IMG/VR virus record: IMGVR_UViG_2778261227_000004
Strand: one strand, 5' to 3'
Origin: a virus
Taxonomy: Duplodnaviria; Heunggongvirae; Uroviricota; Caudoviricetes
Length of the DNA: 29,708 bases
The notes beneath the pieces were generated by a model, which saw only the letters and a list, made by a program, of their open reading frames with translations, did not search any database and had not been told where the DNA came from. This document shows positions 14,463 through 27,318 of the stretch, in pieces. The first letter of the stretch is position 1. Each line of letters begins with the position of its first letter. The position numbers were made by a program, and so were the translations under genes.

Positions 14463-16379
14463 TTATCCTCCACTCAGAGCAGCCGCGATTTCTTCAATAG
14501 TCATTTCATCGTCGTCCTGTTCATCTCTTCTGGCGCGGGCCAGTGCATCCAGATCCAGTTGCCACCGCTGAACGGAAATGCGCAGCGCTGCATAGGCATA
14601 CACCAGACAGTCCAGAGCTTCATTACGCCGTTTTCTGGCATCCCACTGGAGTTTCACCCGCCCGTTCACAACTTTTTCAACCAGCTCTTCTGCCACGAGT
14701 TGTTTAGCTTCAACATCAGAAAAAATGTCCGGGTTATCCGGAAAACGGAAGGTATACGGTGCGACTTCACTGGCAGATACCACCGGCAGGGCAAAACGCG
14801 CATACAGCATTTCCTTGACGGTATCGGAACCCACCTCACACAAAAACACCCCACGCTGGTTTCGCTTTTTTGGCATGGTGATCACCGGCTTGCCGTACAC
14901 CGACGCCCCTTTGATGGGGAGCACAAAAAAAGTGCCGTGTTTTCTGGATCGCTGATACACAATGTCCTGGTCAATACCACCGGTATCCCAGCAGACGCGG
15001 GAAATGGAAATTTCAGTGCCATCTGCATGACGGTATTTTTTCCGGATCACGGCATCAACGCGTTTAAGGGTGTCCTCATCTTCCGGTCTCCCCATGATGA
15101 TCTGCTTGTCAATCAGAAAAGCTTCTTCGCCAGGAGCCCAGCCCCAGACATAAATCTCATAACGGTTTTTCTGAGAGTCGATCCCTGCGGTCAGGTAAAC
15201 CACCCGCAGGGGAACCTGCGCATCATAGTGGCAGACTTTTTCCAGCAACAACTCAAAGCTCAGTTTTTCTGCCACAGCCTCTTCATAAGGCTCCCCCAGC
15301 GTGGTGTTAATGAACGTCTTGACGCCATTCGGATCCTTCAGTGCATCAAGCCAGTCATAAACAATCTGTACCCAGGTGGTGAACGGGCTGTATGCCGTCC
15401 AGATGTGGTACGAGATTGAGCGCGGTGGCGGGATTTCCTCATCACCGGCGCTGTAAAATGTCAGACCGTCACGCGTCCACATCCCGGTATTGTCACAAAT
15501 CCACCGCCCGTCGGTCTGGTCAAGTTCCGACTGACGGATCACGCAGCCATTATGTTCACACAGGTAATACACCGTCTCCGGCTTGCCCTTCTCCCATTTC
15601 AGGCCAAAGGTTGTCGTATCATCGCCAAACTTCAGATACTGGGCTTCACCACAATGAGGGCATGGCACATAAAACCGCATAAAATGCGCAGATTCGTTCG
15701 CGGCTTTTTCAATCTGGCAAAAACCTTTAATTTTGGGCGTTGAGCCACGTATGGATTTAGGCCATACCGAACCTTCGATACGCTTATCGCCAAGCAGGGT
15801 TGGTGAACCTTCTTTTTCCACATCCGGTTCAAACGAGGAGAGTTCGTCATAGCAGACCACATCCACAGATTTTTCACGGTAGTTTTTGGCAGCAGCTCCG
15901 CCCAGACACCAGAATCCCACACCGGAGGAGAAACGTTTCAGGGTAAGCGTGTTGTCCCGATGTTTTCTGCCAAACCACGGAGCCAGCTCCAGTAATACAG
16001 GAACGTCTCTTATCGTTGGTTCGACATGGGATTTCATAAAATCTTCTGCCGCAGAATCTGTCGGCTGAAAAAGCAGGCTGTTACGGGATTTGTGTTCAAT
16101 AAAATAAGCCTCCACCCCCAACAGCATTTTGGTGTAACCAACACGCGCCGATTTAATCAGATTAACGGTGCGGATCCGGTCATTCCCCATGCTGTTCATG
16201 ATGGCAACCTGAAACGGCAGTGTTTCCCATTGCCCGGGAGTATATGAAGACTCTTTTGGCAGATAATAATGCTGATCAGCCCACTGAACTGTCGTCAGTG
16301 GTACCGGAATATTGAGAGATACAAGCCCTGTTGCTATCGCACCGGCTGCATTAGCTGCCTTCTGTGCGTCTGAAATCAT
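14463..16379 (-). CDS. A: terminase large subunit A
   Basis: ATG 16379; [69 protein letters not shown] and LTAGIDSQ match lambda gpA; overlaps Nu1 3' end as in lambda. Confidence 0.9.
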
Positions 16380-16899
16380 CAATCCACCCGCCTACGTTCT
16401 CACCAGCTTTAGCTGCAACGTTGGAGGCTTTTGCGATTTCAGTTTTCACCACATCAAGGTGTGACGGTGAAATATCCGGATATTTACGCTGTAATGTCAG
16501 CGGCACACGTACAAGTATCCCCGAAATCTCCTGTGCCACACGTTGCAGAATGAAGGTAAACAATTCCGTTTCCAGTACCAGCCCTTCTTCGCGGGCATTT
16601 TTCAGTTCCTGTGCATCAGCCTGTGCTTTTGTGAGTCGGTAGCGCTCATAGTCAATGGTGCCGGGTTGTAAATCTGATTCCGCAGCCGCACGCAAATCCT
16701 CGGTCTCTTTGCGGAGTTTTTCGTTTTCAATATCGGCTTCGCGCTGCGCATACCACTGAATTGCCATGGCGGTATCAAATACAGATTCAACCCCCTTACT
16801 ACCACCAGAGACACAAGAGAGCCCCTGAGACTGCCAGCGTTCAATCGTTCGTGGATCCACGTTGAAAATTTCCGCTAGCTTCTTTTTATTAACCTTCAT
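16351..16899 (-). CDS. nu1: terminase small subunit Nu1
   Basis: Start placed at ATG 16899 ([26 protein letters not shown]...); [15 protein letters not shown] and [26 protein letters not shown] match lambda gpNu1. Confidence 0.85.
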
Positions 16900-16923
16900 A
16901 AAACATTTCCATATCAAATGCAG

Positions 16924-24133: not shown

Positions 24134-25183
24134 TTACCCGAGCACGCCGGTTGCAAAGGCGTGATCAAGAAAACGAAAAATTAAATCAATCTGGGAACCA
24201 TGCTTTTCTTCGAACGCCAGCGGATCCGCATGAAGCTCGTTGTGATGCTCCCGACACAACGGTAGCGTGAAAATATCGTGGGATTTTGTTCCCATTCCAC
24301 CCTGACCATGACCAATCAGGTGATGGGGATCGTCGGCTGGCTTACCACAACACGCGCACGGCTGTGTCTTTACCCAGCGCGTGTATTTCTCATTCATCCA
24401 GCGGCGACGTTTAGGTCGCCTCATGAAAGATTCAGGAGACTCCGGATCTACGGCAATGCTGACCACCGTCTTTTCCTGTGGTGCGTTCTGTTGCTGGTGG
24501 ACGTGAGGCAACTGCGCAAGATTTTTTGTGCGCTGCTTCAGTATGCTGGTGGCGGTCTGCTCTCCCGGTATGATGTCGCTTTCGCGGTACACCGAGCGGA
24601 TTTTTTCCGCACGTAATCCCAGCGAACGACGCAATACTGTCTCCGGTAGCGCGTCCGCCACCTGATTGCAGACTGCCCACCAGGATAATTCAGCCAGCGA
24701 TAATTCCCGCTCCTGTGTGCCATTCATTGCCTGGCGTATGACGTCAATCATCCATGCTGTCAGGTTTTGGTGAGCAAGTTGCCCGAGTGATTCGGAAGTC
24801 TGGTCACGCAGCTGGTTGTCGCAGTGCCAGCACAACACCATCGCGCCAGCACCGTAACGATGTATGACGGTTTCGCTGTGATGGTAGTCACCATGAGGCC
24901 ACTGGCAGGATTTAACGTGGCGCAATAGCCAGTCAGACAGTGCACCAGCACCGCCAGCAGCGCGAATCACCCGCTCATCGCTGAAAAATGGCAGCAGAGA
25001 TTTGTCTTCCGCCAGCGGCTGGCGAACGGCAGGAACGACTCCGGATGGCAGACCTCGCATGCTTTTTGGTTCCGGCTCCACCAGCACACGCCCCTGCATA
25101 AACAAAGGCATCGCATCAGGACCGGGCCTGAAAAGTACAATCCCCAGACGGTGAGCAATTTCAGGAGTCACTAATACCCGCAC
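24134..25183 (-). CDS. DUF968-like prophage protein
   Basis: GTG 25183 preceded by GGAGGT; C-terminal ...CACCGKPADDPHHLIGHGQGGMGTKSHDIFTLPLCREHHNELH... recalled as DUF968, common beside rusA/Q in lambdoid prophages. Confidence 0.55.
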   Translation of the reverse strand: MRVLVTPEIAHRLGIVLFRPGPDAMPLFMQGRVLVEPEPKSMRGLPSGVVPAVRQPLAEDKSLLPFFSDERVIRAAGGAGALSDWLLRHVKSCQWPHGDYHHSETVIHRYGAGAMVLCWHCDNQLRDQTSESLGQLAHQNLTAWMIDVIRQAMNGTQERELSLAELSWWAVCNQVADALPETVLRRSLGLRAEKIRSVYRESDIIPGEQTATSILKQRTKNLAQLPHVHQQQNAPQEKTVVSIAVDPESPESFMRRPKRRRWMNEKYTRWVKTQPCACCGKPADDPHHLIGHGQGGMGTKSHDIFTLPLCREHHNELHADPLAFEEKHGSQIDLIFRFLDHAFATGVLG

Positions 25184-25592: not shown

Positions 25593-25850
25593 ATGCGTAC
25601 AACCCAACAATTCAGCATTACATTAACTAACGAAATGGCTGACATGGTGCGCGCCCGTGTGGCTTCCGGTGCCTATGCATCAGAAAGCGAGGTCATTCGT
25701 GAAGGACTTCGCGCACTGAATGAGCGCGATAAAGCAATCGAAGCGTGGTTAACGCATTCAGCCGCCCCCTCTCTTGATTCTATCCGCGAAAATCCAAACA
25801 ACGGACGCTCCATTTCACAGGTTCGCGCCGAGATTCGATCCGGGAAGTAA
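25593..25850 (+). CDS. parD: type II antitoxin, ParD-like (ribbon-helix-helix)
   Basis: ATG 25593 preceded by GAGG; MRTTQQFSITLTNEMADMVRARVASGAYASESEVIREGLRALNERDKAIEAWL... typical of ParD/CopG RHH antitoxins; 5 nt upstream of a ParE-like gene. Confidence 0.75.
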   Translation: MRTTQQFSITLTNEMADMVRARVASGAYASESEVIREGLRALNERDKAIEAWLTHSAAPSLDSIRENPNNGRSISQVRAEIRSGK

Positions 25851-25855
25851 TCTGC

Positions 25856-26155
25856 ATGACATATGAAGTCATCATTACTCCTGAGGCCGAACAACAAATA
25901 ATCAACCTGCACAGATATATAACGGAGAAAGCAGGGAACGTCATTGCTGACAATTATGCCAATGCGCTTCTTGATTATCTTGATGGGTTTTCTACATTCC
26001 CGCATCGGGGCAATAAACGCGATGATATTCGCCAGGGGATGCGGGTAACTCATTTCCGCCACAGAACGATTATTGCTTTTGCCGTTGATGGCAGAAAAGT
26101 CTTTATTGTCGGTATCTATCATGGTGGGCAAAGTTATGAAACCGATTTCTTATAA
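25856..26155 (+). CDS. parE: type II toxin, ParE/RelE-family
   Basis: 99 aa; MTYEVIITPEAEQQIINLHRYI...RVTHFRHRTIIAFAVDGRKVFIVGIYHGGQSYE typical of ParE/RelE toxins; small, immediately after the antitoxin. Confidence 0.75.
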   Translation: MTYEVIITPEAEQQIINLHRYITEKAGNVIADNYANALLDYLDGFSTFPHRGNKRDDIRQGMRVTHFRHRTIIAFAVDGRKVFIVGIYHGGQSYETDFL

Positions 26156-26237
26156 ACTTTTACCCACATCATTCCGGTGTTAGAATAAACCATCCGCCCC
26201 CTCTCTTACTGGCGGATTCGTAGGCTATATAAATCAA

Positions 26238-26273
26238 AGATCCCGGCTCATGTTTGTGTCGGGATCTTTTTTC
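26238..26273 (+). terminator. rho-independent terminator after parE (possibly bidirectional)
   Basis: AGATCCCG...CGGGATCT stem followed by TTTTTT. Confidence 0.65.
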
Positions 26274-26279
26274 GGCGAT

Positions 26280-26363
26280 TTATCCCCAGCGGCAAATCGA
26301 ATACACCACCAACGCCACCGCCAGTGCGATTCCTACCGTTGTGAATGCTTCAGGCCAGGTCAT
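26280..26363 (-). CDS. 27-aa hydrophobic peptide, coupled to the upstream 114-aa gene
   Basis: ATG 26363 overlaps the upstream TGA (ATGA) with GGAGGA 10 nt upstream; [27 protein letters not shown]. Below the ORF-track cutoff. Confidence 0.35.
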
Positions 26364-26704
26364 CGTAAAACATCCTCCACGCTTATCAATCCGTTCCGCT
26401 CCAGATAACTCATCGCCTTATCCGGTAATTTGCAGTCTGGCTTCGCTTTCCTCAGTTGCCAGGCTAACTGCTTTACCTGCATAGTTAACTCGTCGACCAG
26501 ACGCTGATACCCCACTGGTTTGTATTCATGCAATTTACCGGCTGGCTCTGCTGCCAGCGATACCAGTGCGATTTCCAGAACAGCAATATCCATCTTATAT
26601 GTGCGGATGATGTCATTGTCGATTGTGCCCGGTATGCACAATCTCTGTGCTTCAATAGTCTCCTCTGCGTGAGCTATTAACTGCTCTCTGGTAAAAGTCG
26701 TCAT
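26360..26704 (-). CDS. hypothetical 114-aa protein
   Basis: ATG 26704 overlaps the HNH stop (ATGA); family not recognised. Confidence 0.5.
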
Positions 26705-27066
26705 GCCGTAGCCCCTTCTTGATATTTTTCAAACCAGAACACAACTGGGTCAGATTTCATTTCAACCAATCCCATACGAACCAGCGCCTTGCCTTTCCCG
26801 GACGCAAGGAATTCACGACGACCATCACTGATAATTCGCCGATAATCTTCCAGGCTACTGCAATGCTTGTGCAGATTGCATGGGTGGCATGCCGGAACCA
26901 TGTTGGATATATCGTCACGTTCCTGGTGAAGCATATTTCCATCAAAACGGATGACCGGTTTTACATGGTCTGCATGCCACTTTTCGCCAAGTTCGCAGCC
27001 GCAATAAGCGCAGCGACCACCGAACTTCATGCGCAGTTCTGCACGTTGTTTTTTCGTCAGTGACAT
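26701..27066 (-). CDS. HNH endonuclease (121 aa)
   Basis: C-x2-C ... HADH ... N-x4-C-x2-CN pattern: ...[23 protein letters not shown]...[13 protein letters not shown]... Confidence 0.75.
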
Positions 27067-27067
27067 A

Positions 27068-27286
27068 TCAGCTTTCCTTATACGGATTAATTTTATTGTG
27101 TAGTGTGTTGAATGGTCCCCATATCACATCGGTATATAACTCAATAATAGGTTCAATTATTTTCACGATTATCCAGACAAAAATTAGCGGGGATATCGGT
27201 ATCATCAACACGATAAACAGAATGAGAAACAAAAATTCTGTCGCTCTACTTTTTCGCGGATATTCTTTTCTGAATAATGTAGTCAT
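27068..27286 (-). CDS. 72-aa single-pass membrane protein (AT-rich cassette)
   Basis: ...FLFLILFIVLMIPISPLIFVWIIVKII...; local GC about 33 percent; stop is 1 nt from the HNH start. Confidence 0.45.
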   Translation of the reverse strand: MTTLFRKEYPRKSRATEFLFLILFIVLMIPISPLIFVWIIVKIIEPIIELYTDVIWGPFNTLHNKINPYKES

Positions 27287-27318
27287 TTCTTACCGCCCTT
27301 TCGGGCGGCCTCCTGACA

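Follow-up and report, generated by a model that had tools for sequence, protein, structure and literature searches.

Stand-alone HNH genes occur sporadically in lambdoid early operons, where they are apparently mobile (PMC12315714). Ea22 has a mosaic architecture (PMC10834534), and in multicopy the genes yfdQ and yfdR inhibit replication initiation together with either yfdS, which encodes a DUF551 protein, or yfdT (PMC4776307). These are among the described systems closest to the early genes analyzed here. The window, which is the whole stretch of viral DNA that was analyzed (29,708 nucleotides), is 99.9% identical to a prophage of E. coli RM8082 and is a lambdoid prophage. The RM8082 gene order runs O/P, then DUF4406, p70, DUF4014, HNH, p114, the convergent ParE/ParD pair, DUF968, RusA, and Q. 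HNH, p114, and p27 fall within the nin-equivalent section of the pR operon, between O/P and DUF968-RusA-Q. The features of the locus are as follows.

27068..27286, minus strand, DUF4014 gene for a small membrane protein of 72 residues (Pfam PF13198, 1.8e-27; phrog_1832)
27066..26701, minus strand, HNH nuclease gene, 121 residues
26704..26360, minus strand, p114 gene, 114 residues
26363..26280, minus strand, p27 gene, 27 residues
26236-26269, hairpin located where p27 and parE converge (z = -3.3 and -3.6 for its two strands)
25593..26155, plus strand, ParD/ParE type II toxin-antitoxin pair (Pfam ParE_toxin 3.2e-10 and ParD_antitoxin 2.7e-7; RefSeq annotation)

Literature searches for an HNH endonuclease in the lambdoid nin region, for DUF4014, and for the p27 peptide sequence found no papers. 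The PHROG label of phrog_1832 is 'released from the phage upon host infection'. Neither Pfam, NCBIfam, nor PADLOC yielded a match above threshold for p114, p27, or p70, and an Rfam search of the whole window found no family.

An earlier note on this DNA had described the HNH, p114, and p27 reading frames as a chain joined by ATGA overlaps, and the minus strand and the open reading frame list bear this out. The HNH/p114 junction is GGCATGACG at 26704-26701 and the p114/p27 junction is CGATGACC at 26363-26360, both true ATGA stop/start overlaps. DUF4014 abuts HNH on the upstream side, with its stop codon at 27070-27068 placed 1 nt before the HNH start (TGAtATG), and the gene chain begins one gene earlier than had been described, at DUF4014. 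Fifteen of the 32 junctions in the prophage overlap or abut, five of them as 4-nt overlaps, and because of this the ATGA coupling is generic here and does not mark out the three genes. All three genes are more than chance reading frames since HNH exceeds its Pfam gathering score, p114 has hundreds of homologues, and the p27 frame is conserved. The proposal in the earlier note hinged in part on the conservation of the 114- and 27-residue frames, and that conservation was found.

The hairpin at 26236-26269 folds at -17.4 kcal/mol on the minus strand that encodes HNH, followed by a GAUUUAUAU tail, and at -23.2 kcal/mol on the plus strand, followed by UUUUUU. It suits the convergent parE better because both the stronger fold and the UUUUUU tail are on the plus strand, and the folding calculation fits better with a canonical intrinsic terminator for parDE and a weak one on the minus strand. 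A consensus terminator scan called the hairpin on neither strand because its loop is 14 nt long. The hairpin was rejected as a terminator for the HNH operon, since transcription from pR has to reach Q and the late genes downstream and the U-tract lies on the other strand. The terminator named in the earlier note is a real hairpin.

Co-occurrence was then used to ask whether the genes travel together, a check that the earlier note had itself named. The HNH core was found in 385 of 5,426 complete E. coli genomes, p114 in 563, and p27 in 1,285 (~24%), with HNH and p114 contiguous in 191; these genomes are related and carry near-identical alleles, and neither these counts nor the locus counts below represent phylogenetically independent events. 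Among IMG/VR loci, p114 is the next gene after HNH in 28 of 80 HNH loci. A full HNH gene precedes p114 in 21 of 80 p114 loci, and in the remaining 59 all that is left of HNH is part of its 3' end, within a 55-residue chimera. This 'EaA' reading frame is an exchange chimera that keeps the last 14 to 19 HNH codons. The breakpoints lie at the gene ends. Relative to locus L091, homology is lost after the first 21 nt of HNH and returns 58 nt ahead of the HNH stop codon; relative to locus L008, it is lost after the first 21 nt of p114 and returns exactly at the ATG of p27. HNH, p114, and p27 assort independently as separately swappable cassettes; the independent co-occurrence counts and the breakpoints at gene ends make them separate cassettes rather than a dedicated unit.

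These results bear directly on the proposal that HNH, p114, and p27 form one dedicated toxin-like or abortive infection module consisting of a nuclease effector, a partner or immunity protein, and a membrane peptide. The tight ATGA coupling, the type II toxin-antitoxin pair next door, and the presence of p27 after p114 in 78 of 80 p114 loci in IMG/VR are consistent with such a module, as is a weak likeness of the HNH core to defense effectors (PtuB at 3.2e-8 in PADLOC; the HNH domains of Cap5, PtuB, and Cas9 at Foldseek E >= 0.03). An obligate antidote should be indispensable, however, and p114 adjoins HNH in only 191 of the 385 HNH-bearing genomes and in 28 of 80 IMG/VR loci, which is not the obligate co-occurrence of a toxin with its cognate antidote. 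Furthermore, p27 mostly accompanies other genes, the overlaps are generic in this operon, and distant HNH homologues lack both partners; no p114-like neighbor was found beside the homologues in Yersinia, Comamonas, Bas77, or RB49. The PADLOC matches (Septu PtuAB, retron-HNH, and PDC-M01) cover the HNH core only, with the PtuB match confined to profile positions 20-88 of 227. PADLOC found neither a PtuA nor a reverse transcriptase partner, and p114, p27, and DUF4014 are without a match. A promoter-like consensus scan gave 6 sites against 5.5 ± 2.3 expected, none of them positioned for the three genes, so that there is no signal above chance for expression in a lysogen, although such a scan may miss a real promoter. 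A dedicated three-part module is therefore highly improbable, and the reading of the coupled genes as a compact toxin-like unit is not supported by the comparison. A looser functional link is a separate matter. HNH is followed through the same ATGA joint by a member of the 'MTT...' family in 76 of 78 E. coli-type loci, and likewise in a Klebsiella prophage with an HNH of 60% identity, which leaves room for a connection between HNH and this family.

The genuine toxin-like module at the locus is the adjacent ParD/ParE pair, which is convergent, lies outside the operon, and travels with the cassette in some phages. ArgO145 has the same ParD/ParE neighbor, and hok/sok fills the equivalent site in other phages.

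Over residues 19-68 the HNH protein matches the Pfam HNH family (PF01844) with 28.2 bits, above the gathering score of 21.4, and phrog_2118 matches it at 7.3e-57. Twelve residues (C19, C22, H31, D33, H34, N55, C60, C63, N64, K67, F110, and E113) are invariant across 38 homologues of 51-92% identity. The catalytic D-H, the structural Asn, the metal-ligand Asn/His, and the CxxC...CxxC zinc site are complete and conserved, as expected of an intact zinc-finger His-Me nuclease. A 10-residue motif in the C-terminal tail is family-specific and includes the invariant F110 and E113. The AF2 model has a pLDDT of 89.6, and Foldseek returned HNH domains only; against the PDB these were generic HNH domains with E >= 0.03, which assign the protein to no specific subfamily. 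The RM8082 copy is annotated 'HNH endonuclease' (WP_223716306.1).

The earlier note correctly placed this gene in the nin region, away from a lambda-type Nu1/A packaging system. The terminase matches Pfam Phage_Nu1 (2.6e-83), GpA_ATPase, and GpA_nuclease, and terS is located at 16354-16917, ~9.8 kb from HNH with Q and the lysis genes intervening. This distance and a Nu1/GpA terminase with its own nuclease domain speak against a packaging-accessory role of the HK97 gp74 type. A BLASTP comparison of HK97 gp74 with the window HNH gave no alignment and no detectable similarity.

HNH alleles of 95-99% identity are found in 382 of the 385 genomes with varying flanks, and the gene appears in many settings. 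ArgO145 gp11 is 99% identical to the window HNH and the same cassette is located in its pL region. The slot after DUF4014 is polymorphic and is filled by alternative genes rather than left empty: an 87-residue reading frame plus the 55-residue chimera in L091, and L0066 in 933W. DUF4014 itself is often found without HNH, as with L0067 of 933W. The two genes are neighbors in E. coli and also in Salmonella phage g341c, where the order is opposite to that in the window: Ea22-like, HNH, DUF4014, with HNH on the upstream side. More distant homologues are found in Yersinia (NinB-HNH-YbcO-RusA-Q, where NinB is Orf), in Klebsiella (HNH-DUF551...NinE-NinG-Q), and near int in Comamonas. Other members of the family are found next to terminases or, in a T4-like phage, as a free-standing reading frame. 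Bas77 has a full-length homologue, 49% identical, ~750 nt upstream of terL, and in RB49 a relative directly follows the DNA ligase gene.

The nin-region location and the Yersinia homologue between NinB (Orf) and YbcO-RusA point to a second possibility, a structure-specific nuclease for recombination or replication, like Rap/NinG or T4 endonuclease VII, that would support the recombination-dependent growth of the phage itself and have no connection with p114 and p27. A phrog_1035 'endonuclease VII' match (1.9e-12) points the same way, and some HNH genes are counted within recombination modules (PMC12315714). The NinG/Rap profile (PF05766) also matches, but at 18.2 bits it falls under its gathering score of 25.4 and covers the HNH-like core alone. 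Directly downstream the prophage already has RusA and a DUF968 protein, the latter with an HNH-like motif. The same HNH allele is found near int in pL operons, and the family is also terminase-adjacent and free-standing in a T4-like phage; these varied positions therefore indicate mobility and not a fixed place in a pathway. A dedicated recombination nuclease is thus unlikely. From its motifs and distribution the window HNH is instead predicted to nick or cut DNA as a zinc-finger His-Me enzyme and to belong to a stand-alone family that is promiscuously mobile. Its most likely behavior is that of a selfish, homing-like nuclease or of an accessory nuclease in DNA processing. We infer that it is neither a packaging factor nor the toxin of a three-part system.

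The structure prediction for p114 that the earlier note had called for gave an all-alpha AF2 model (pLDDT 84.8) with two modules. Residues 1-54 form a YfdT-like helical hairpin ('MTTFT...IALxSLxAEP') and residues 66-114 a conserved three-helix C-terminal module held in common with N15 gp45. The mosaic alignment indicates a modular build of a short N-module, a flexible linker, and a portable C-terminal domain. YfdT is 41% identical to the N-module over 54 residues (pairwise BLASTP, E = 9e-6), N15 gp45 is 69% identical to residues 70-114 over 45 residues (tblastn, E = 2e-11), and gp45 is also the top Foldseek match (E = 4.6e-4). PHROGs 660, 924, 5117, and 60, all of unknown function, match separate halves of the protein. 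No Pfam family matched at E <= 0.1, with no Ead/Ea22 or DUF551 signature, and a sequence search of the PDB returned designed coiled coils only. On these similarities p114 belongs with YfdT through its N-module and with N15 gp45 through its C-module. By analogy it may act as an Ea22/YfdT-style adaptor in which the N-terminal hairpin self-associates and the portable C-module binds a host or phage partner.

The p27 gene is not annotated by RefSeq in the window prophage, and PGAP skips it in every locus inspected. Its homology block runs exactly from the ATG to the stop codon and is followed by at least four kinds of downstream sequence. All 86 hits to a pattern that left codon 27 and the stop unconstrained are exactly 27 codons long, and 81 of them have ATG at codon 1. 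The frame is kept in 933W, BP-4795, phi467, and the lytic phage Av-05. The 17 differences from the Av-05 copy comprise 11 synonymous and 6 nonsynonymous changes (pS = 0.54, pN = 0.10, P = 9e-4), and the variable sites are distributed 14/12/23 over the three codon positions. In all divergent copies the two remaining frames are interrupted by stops, the substitutions are conservative and hydrophobic, and a GGAGG Shine-Dalgarno sequence lies 7-10 nt upstream in every context. The fixed 27-codon length and the excess of synonymous change show that p27 is under coding constraint, and it is very probably a real translated gene.

The alternative that the 84-nt block is not protein-coding, and is an RNA or regulatory element such as a ribosome-landing or anti-polarity spacer preceding a terminator, or a recombination 'linker', would account for its absence from PGAP annotation, for its frequent position directly before a terminator or toxin-antitoxin locus, and for the few defective alleles (7 with a 1-nt indel and 1 with a premature stop among ~140 copies). 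The fixed length, synonymous excess, codon-position pattern, closed alternative frames, and constant ribosome-binding site described above all argue against it, Rfam has no match, and a noncoding block is very unlikely.

Residues 6-24 form one hydrophobic helix (GRAVY 2.2), and p27 is predicted to be a conserved gene for a single-pass membrane micropeptide. The product would sit in the inner membrane with its N-terminus out and its C-terminal R-W-G in, and would act as a peptide. No Pfam, NCBIfam, PHROG, or PADLOC family matched at threshold, the best being KdpF (E = 0.056) and DUF883_C (E = 0.045). Membership among type I, Hok-like toxins found no family match, and Rfam detected no antisense RNA family in the window. 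The genes preceding p27 encode DUF551 proteins at 41 loci, p114-type proteins at 24, and others at 18. It is doubtful that p27 functions as a portable membrane module, always translated by stop/start coupling from the preceding soluble accessory protein (DUF551, p114-type, or other), that tethers or regulates such proteins at the inner membrane or hits a host membrane target early in infection. Two leads on p27 were discarded. K-12 CPS-53 was considered as a home for it after yfdS (DUF551), and p27 is absent there; the same check brought out the kinship of YfdT to the p114 N-module. The grouping of the 27-residue peptide with 'DUF551' proteins in a protein collection was taken for a clustering artifact, because the representatives lack the peptide. 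Copies of p27 are also carried by Stx phages, 933W among them, and by a lytic phage of the Vequintavirinae.

The locus is an ordinary accessory array. It is probably the distal end of a hyper-mosaic early array in a lambdoid prophage, with DUF4014, HNH, p114, and p27 as independently exchangeable cassettes. In this prophage the array occupies the nin-equivalent region of the pR operon, and in Stx phages the same cassettes occupy the pL 'ea' region beside int. Exchange would proceed by recombination at short conserved boundary sequences, namely the first ~7 codons (MxLTKKQ, MTTxTxE), the last ~19 HNH codons, and the start and stop of p27. One long antiterminated early transcript would carry all four genes, and the ATGA and TGAtATG joints would pass ribosomes between the short reading frames, as at about half of the prophage junctions.

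The meaning of the analysis is mainly corrective: tight ATGA coupling in a phage early operon is no evidence of a functional module. The region provides a worked example of lambdoid accessory-gene shuffling at short joints that straddle start and stop codons. What is mildly new is that the p27 gene, which annotation nearly always misses, is truly conserved. A 27-codon membrane peptide gene that standard annotation omits in roughly one-quarter of complete E. coli genomes, Stx-converting phages included, makes a clean candidate for work on small proteins.

Each part of the array can be set beside a known system. Like type I toxins (Hok) and KdpF-like small inner-membrane proteins, p27 has one hydrophobic helix and lies close to toxin-antitoxin loci, and Hok adjoins in phages related to the window prophage. 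It has no sequence similarity to these peptides, however, and is translated through coupling to an upstream gene and not from a regulated leader of its own. The p114 protein has the same modular build as the Ea22/Ead mosaic early proteins, YfdT of the K-12 prophage CPS-53, and N15 gp45. The likeness to Ea22 is one of modular build only, without an Ead/Ea22 or DUF551 Pfam signature, and the C-terminal domain of lambda Ea22 has an alpha-beta fold (PMC10834534) whereas the C-terminal module of p114 is three helices. The HNH protein has the beta-beta-alpha-metal fold and CxxC...CxxC zinc site in common with the Gme HNH nicking endonuclease (PDB 4H9D), CBASS Cap5, the Cas9 HNH, and the PtuB HNH, with weak similarity by sequence (E = 0.058) and by Foldseek (E >= 0.03). 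It has no sensor, ATPase, or guide-RNA partner domains, and its family-specific tail with F110 and E113 is missing from those proteins. The packaging-associated HNH of the HK97 gp74 type (Kala et al. 2014, cited in PMC12315714) is likewise a small stand-alone zinc-finger protein of ~120 residues, and the Bas77 relative of the window HNH (49% identical) is terminase-adjacent. The closest match is to the sporadic stand-alone HNH genes of lambdoid phages (PMC12315714). The window HNH shares with them both the early-operon site outside the recombination module and the apparent mobility, and judged by sequence and position it is one of these already-known genes, with no difference from them.

Four genes form one chain on the minus strand of the window, followed immediately by a convergent toxin-antitoxin pair:

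27286–27068, minus strand, DUF4014 gene (small membrane protein, 72 aa), fourth member of the chain
27066–26701, minus strand, HNH (zinc-finger HNH nuclease, 121 aa)
26704–26360, minus strand, p114 (114 aa)
26363–26280, minus strand, p27 (hydrophobic peptide, 27 aa)
25593–26155, plus strand, ParD/ParE type II pair, immediately downstream of p27

The HNH/p114 and p114/p27 joints are GGCATGACG and CGATGACC, both true ATGA stop/start overlaps, and the DUF4014 stop lies 1 nt ahead of the HNH ATG to give a TGAtATG joint. The coordinates and anatomy of the three-ORF chain described in the earlier note are correct, since the three ORFs and both ATGA joints are read directly from the minus strand and the ORF list. 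That note also took the coupling as a sign of a single unit. ATGA coupling is nothing specific to HNH-p114-p27 because such junctions are generic in this prophage: 15 of 32 abut or overlap, five of them by 4 nt, DUF977/DUF4406, RusA/Q and TerB/DUF3927 among them. The 32-nt spacer between DUF4014 and p70, the ORF upstream of it, holds a GC-rich hairpin (CCGCCC-GAAA-GGGCGG, 27293–27308, minus strand) with a GNRA-type tetraloop and without a U-tract; it could act in RNA stability or processing.

Co-occurrence was measured by megablast against complete E. coli genomes.

Occurrence among 5,426 complete E. coli genomes
HNH core (257 nt): 385
p114 (at least 80% covered): 563
HNH and p114 contiguous: 191
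Whole 1.3-kb cassette: 182
p27 ORF: 1,285

Among IMG/VR loci, p114 lies directly downstream in 28 of 80 anchored on HNH, and a full HNH lies upstream in 21 of 80 anchored on p114, the other 59 retaining only an HNH 3′-end remnant. Homology between the window and the compared locus L091 spans DUF4014 and the first 21 nt of HNH, breaks, and restarts 58 nt ahead of the HNH stop; the replaced segment of L091 is an 87-aa ORF and a 55-aa ORF beginning MTTITKERIELF, whose final 14 residues are the HNH tail. Against a second locus, L008, homology extends from DUF4014 through HNH to nt 21 of p114, breaks there and restarts exactly at the p27 ATG, with a 221-aa 'MTT' protein (a family starting MTT... 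found downstream of HNH) and a 121-aa DUF551 protein between the breakpoints. Because the breakpoints map there, exchange occurs at short joints straddling gene starts and ends, a pattern of classical lambdoid mosaicism. The 55-aa 'EaA' ORFs upstream of p114 (L091 2837–3004; 59 of 80 p114-anchored loci) are chimeras of an Ea22/YfdT-like N-module and the last ~14 HNH codons, a footprint of recombinational HNH replacement.

The earlier note proposed that the trio is a compact toxin-like or abortive-infection unit. A dedicated three-gene module of this type is highly improbable: HNH and p114 are contiguous in 191 genomes versus 385 with HNH and 1,285 with p27, and the breakpoints against L091 and L008 fall at gene starts and ends. 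The observations and context in that note stand; the proposed function is not supported, given the independent assortment, the gene-end breakpoints and the generic coupling. The region is probably a string of independent accessory cassettes, which would be read by translational coupling from one long early transcript. Whatever gene comes next after HNH in E. coli-type loci (products of 114 to 364 aa), it opens with MTT(F/I/N)T at this ATGA joint in 76 of 78 cases, and an 'MTKSTITREQL' DUF551 protein follows a Klebsiella HNH homologue (60% identity) in the same way. This constant joint may be no more than a shared recombination joint, and HNH and the 'MTT' family may be loosely linked.

The 1.3 kb surrounding the trio is 99.9% identical to a prophage of E. 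coli RM8082, which in RefSeq reads cI-like repressor, cro, YdaT, O-like protein, P, DUF977, DUF4406, two hypotheticals, p70, DUF4014, HNH, a hypothetical (p114), ParE and ParD on the opposite strand, a 90-aa hypothetical, DUF968, RusA, Q, lysis genes, Nu1-type terS, GpA-type terL, W and portal. Pfam matches to Phage_Nu1 (2.6e-83), GpA_ATPase with GpA_nuclease, and Q bear out the lambda-type packaging claimed in the earlier note, and its placement of HNH in the nin region away from terminase holds, with HNH at a nin-equivalent position ~9.8 kb from terS. In the Stx2a phage ArgO145, a DUF4014-HNH-p114-ParE/ParD block 96% identical to this one sits in the early-left operon, flanked by Ead/Ea22-like genes on one side and int on the other; the block is thus mobile between operons. 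In the 'Actinobacillus phage vB_Apl-pPE4' record (PP818812.1), the DUF4014 and p27 region matches lambdoid prophages of E. coli at 91–94% nucleotide identity and is accompanied by O/P-like replication genes and hok; the host assignment looks doubtful. The DUF968 (YdfU-like) protein beside RusA (24134–25183, minus strand) has an HNH-like motif at residues 271–319, a sub-threshold Pfam HNHc_6 match (1.1e-4); if the motif is genuine, this nin region would carry genes for two nucleases of the HNH type.

The 121-aa protein scores above threshold against the Pfam HNH profile. Residues C19, C22, H31, D33, H34, N55, C60, C63, N64, K67, R76, F110 and E113 are invariant in 38 homologues (down to 51% identity), so selection maintains an intact zinc site and catalytic D-H/N/N; the C-terminal tail (GLV...) is peculiar to this family. 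The AF2 model (pLDDT 89.6) weakly matches only HNH domains, all at E ≥ 0.03 (Cap5, Cas9 HNH, PtuB, Gme nicking HNH, McrA, T4 endo VII), and the top PDB sequence match is the Gme HNH nickase 4H9D (E = 0.058). No similarity to HK97 gp74 was found.

Gene contexts of full-length HNH homologues
Yersinia prophages: NinB-HNH-(small ORF)-YbcO-RusA-Q
Klebsiella: HNH-DUF551...NinE-NinG-Q
Comamonas: near int
Salmonella phage g341c: Ea22-like, HNH, DUF4014, with HNH upstream of DUF4014, opposite to the window
Siphovirus Bas77: genome start, ~750 nt upstream of terL, 49% identical
T4-like phage RB49: immediately after DNA ligase

A nin-region recombination nuclease would suit the position of HNH and is unlikely. 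A 2025 survey of lambdoid phages describes 'sporadic' HNH genes of exactly this kind outside recombination modules and cautions that, since they seem to be mobile, little can be read about their role from where they sit (PMC12315714). We read HNH as a putative, promiscuously mobile stand-alone zinc-finger nuclease, here most likely either selfish and homing-like or a dispensable accessory in DNA processing. Two other roles were considered and rejected: a packaging factor, in a phage with a lambda-type Nu1/GpA terminase and terS ~9.8 kb away, and a toxin with a cognate partner, p114 adjoining HNH in 191 of 385 E. coli genomes. In Yersinia prophage L169 (4647–4742), a 31-aa hydrophobic ORF (MVIEIIAVTALGISLIPAGLLSYIWWRIIRG) lies downstream of the HNH homologue and overlaps the YbcO start; it loosely recalls p27 in having a hydrophobic helix followed by W-R...G, by homology or coincidence.

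The p27 small ORF is real. Across 36 distinct sequence contexts, the conserved block starts at the p27 ATG where the upstream gene differs and ends at the stop, beyond which lie at least four unrelated sequences. A nucleotide search turned up divergent copies in 933W, BP-4795, phi467 and the lytic Vequintavirinae phage Av-05; all are 27–28 codon ORFs with conservative substitutions and stops in both other frames, and in each record the 84 nt lie within an unannotated gap. That p27 is a non-coding element is quite unlikely: a degenerate pattern constraining codons 3–7 and 21–26 only found 86 sites, with the stop directly after codon 27 in 86/86 and ATG at codon 1 in 81/86, and comparison with Av-05 gives 11 synonymous and 6 nonsynonymous differences (pS 0.54, pN 0.10, binomial P = 9e-4). 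The pN/pS is 0.29 across 72 alleles, a set that the search pattern biases. The p27 ATG and the upstream stop overlap as ATGA in 63 of 83 analysable loci and as TGATGA in 13 more, with GGAGG 7–10 nt upstream; the upstream gene encodes a DUF551 protein (41), a p114-type protein (24) or another protein (18).

The peptide is a single hydrophobic helix (residues 6–24, GRAVY 2.2) flanked by E5 and R25. Among ~140 copies, seven have a 1-nt indel and one a premature stop, which suggests occasional decay or sequencing errors; such indels either create a 143-aa in-frame fusion of p114 with p27 or abolish the p27 reading frame (protein-collection entry P0011; L148/L055-type and L154 alleles). With one genome per species, the pattern occurs in Escherichia and Shigella only, plus three tiny contaminant contigs. 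These (L175, L177, L179; 369–1,780 nt) come from assemblies labelled Segatella copri MAG, Xanthomonas pisi and Acinetobacter idrijaensis, and their 90–100% identity to p27-bearing E. coli phage loci makes contamination almost certain. Searches of Pfam, NCBIfam, PHROG and PADLOC, and of the literature with the peptide string, found no matching family or paper. In the protein collection, clusters at 90% identity place exact 27-aa peptides under DUF551 representatives (121–185 aa) that lack the peptide, apparently an artefact of clustering such short sequences. As a conserved but unannotated micropeptide family, p27 is of modest novelty.

The earlier note ended the operon at a terminator. The hairpin at 26236–26269 is real and folds well on both strands, and it is better suited as the parE terminator because a U-run follows the plus-strand version only. 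In the RM8082 gene order, transcription of the early rightward operon (pR) reaches DUF968, RusA and Q only by passing through this region, where the hairpin acts at most as a read-through nin-region terminator. Related phages have a canonical terminator, hok/sok, ParE/ParD or another gene (DUF4222 in BP-4795) next after p27, with hok/sok in 933W, vB_EcoS-689R5 and many IMG/VR loci. The site upstream of DUF968/YdfU-RusA-Q therefore looks like a toxin-antitoxin insertion hot spot, which may be the source of the 'toxin-like' flavour of the region.

No Pfam family was found for p114, and its halves match different PHROGs, all of unknown function. Homologues are restricted to enterobacterial prophages and are strikingly mosaic, many sharing just 39–70% of their length at 80–99% identity. 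In the alignment, the N-module (MTTFTxEQL...IALxSLxAEP) and the middle vary, while a 48-aa C-module found in proteins of 101–199 aa is almost invariant; the AF2 model (pLDDT 84.8) has a helical hairpin (6–51), a low-confidence linker and three helices (66–113). HNH and p114 are of low novelty because both are already annotated and of known kinds. Among named proteins, the p114 N-module is closest to E. coli K-12 YfdT (41% over 54 aa) and the C-module to N15 gp45 (69% over 45 aa), also the top BFVD match. In N15 the gp45 gene runs by an ATGA overlap into the tiny gene 45.1 (L303 1635–1691), whose annotated product gp45.1 (18 aa) is unrelated to p27 and not hydrophobic. The sole functional hint comes from multicopy experiments in which chromosome replication initiation was inhibited only when yfdS (DUF551) or yfdT accompanied yfdQ and yfdR (PMC4776307). 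We infer that p114 may be an early adaptor protein that would bind a host or phage partner. Its build mirrors that of the mosaic Ea22 proteins, in which a short segment at the N-terminus is combined with a coiled coil and a C-terminal domain that is portable (PMC10834534).
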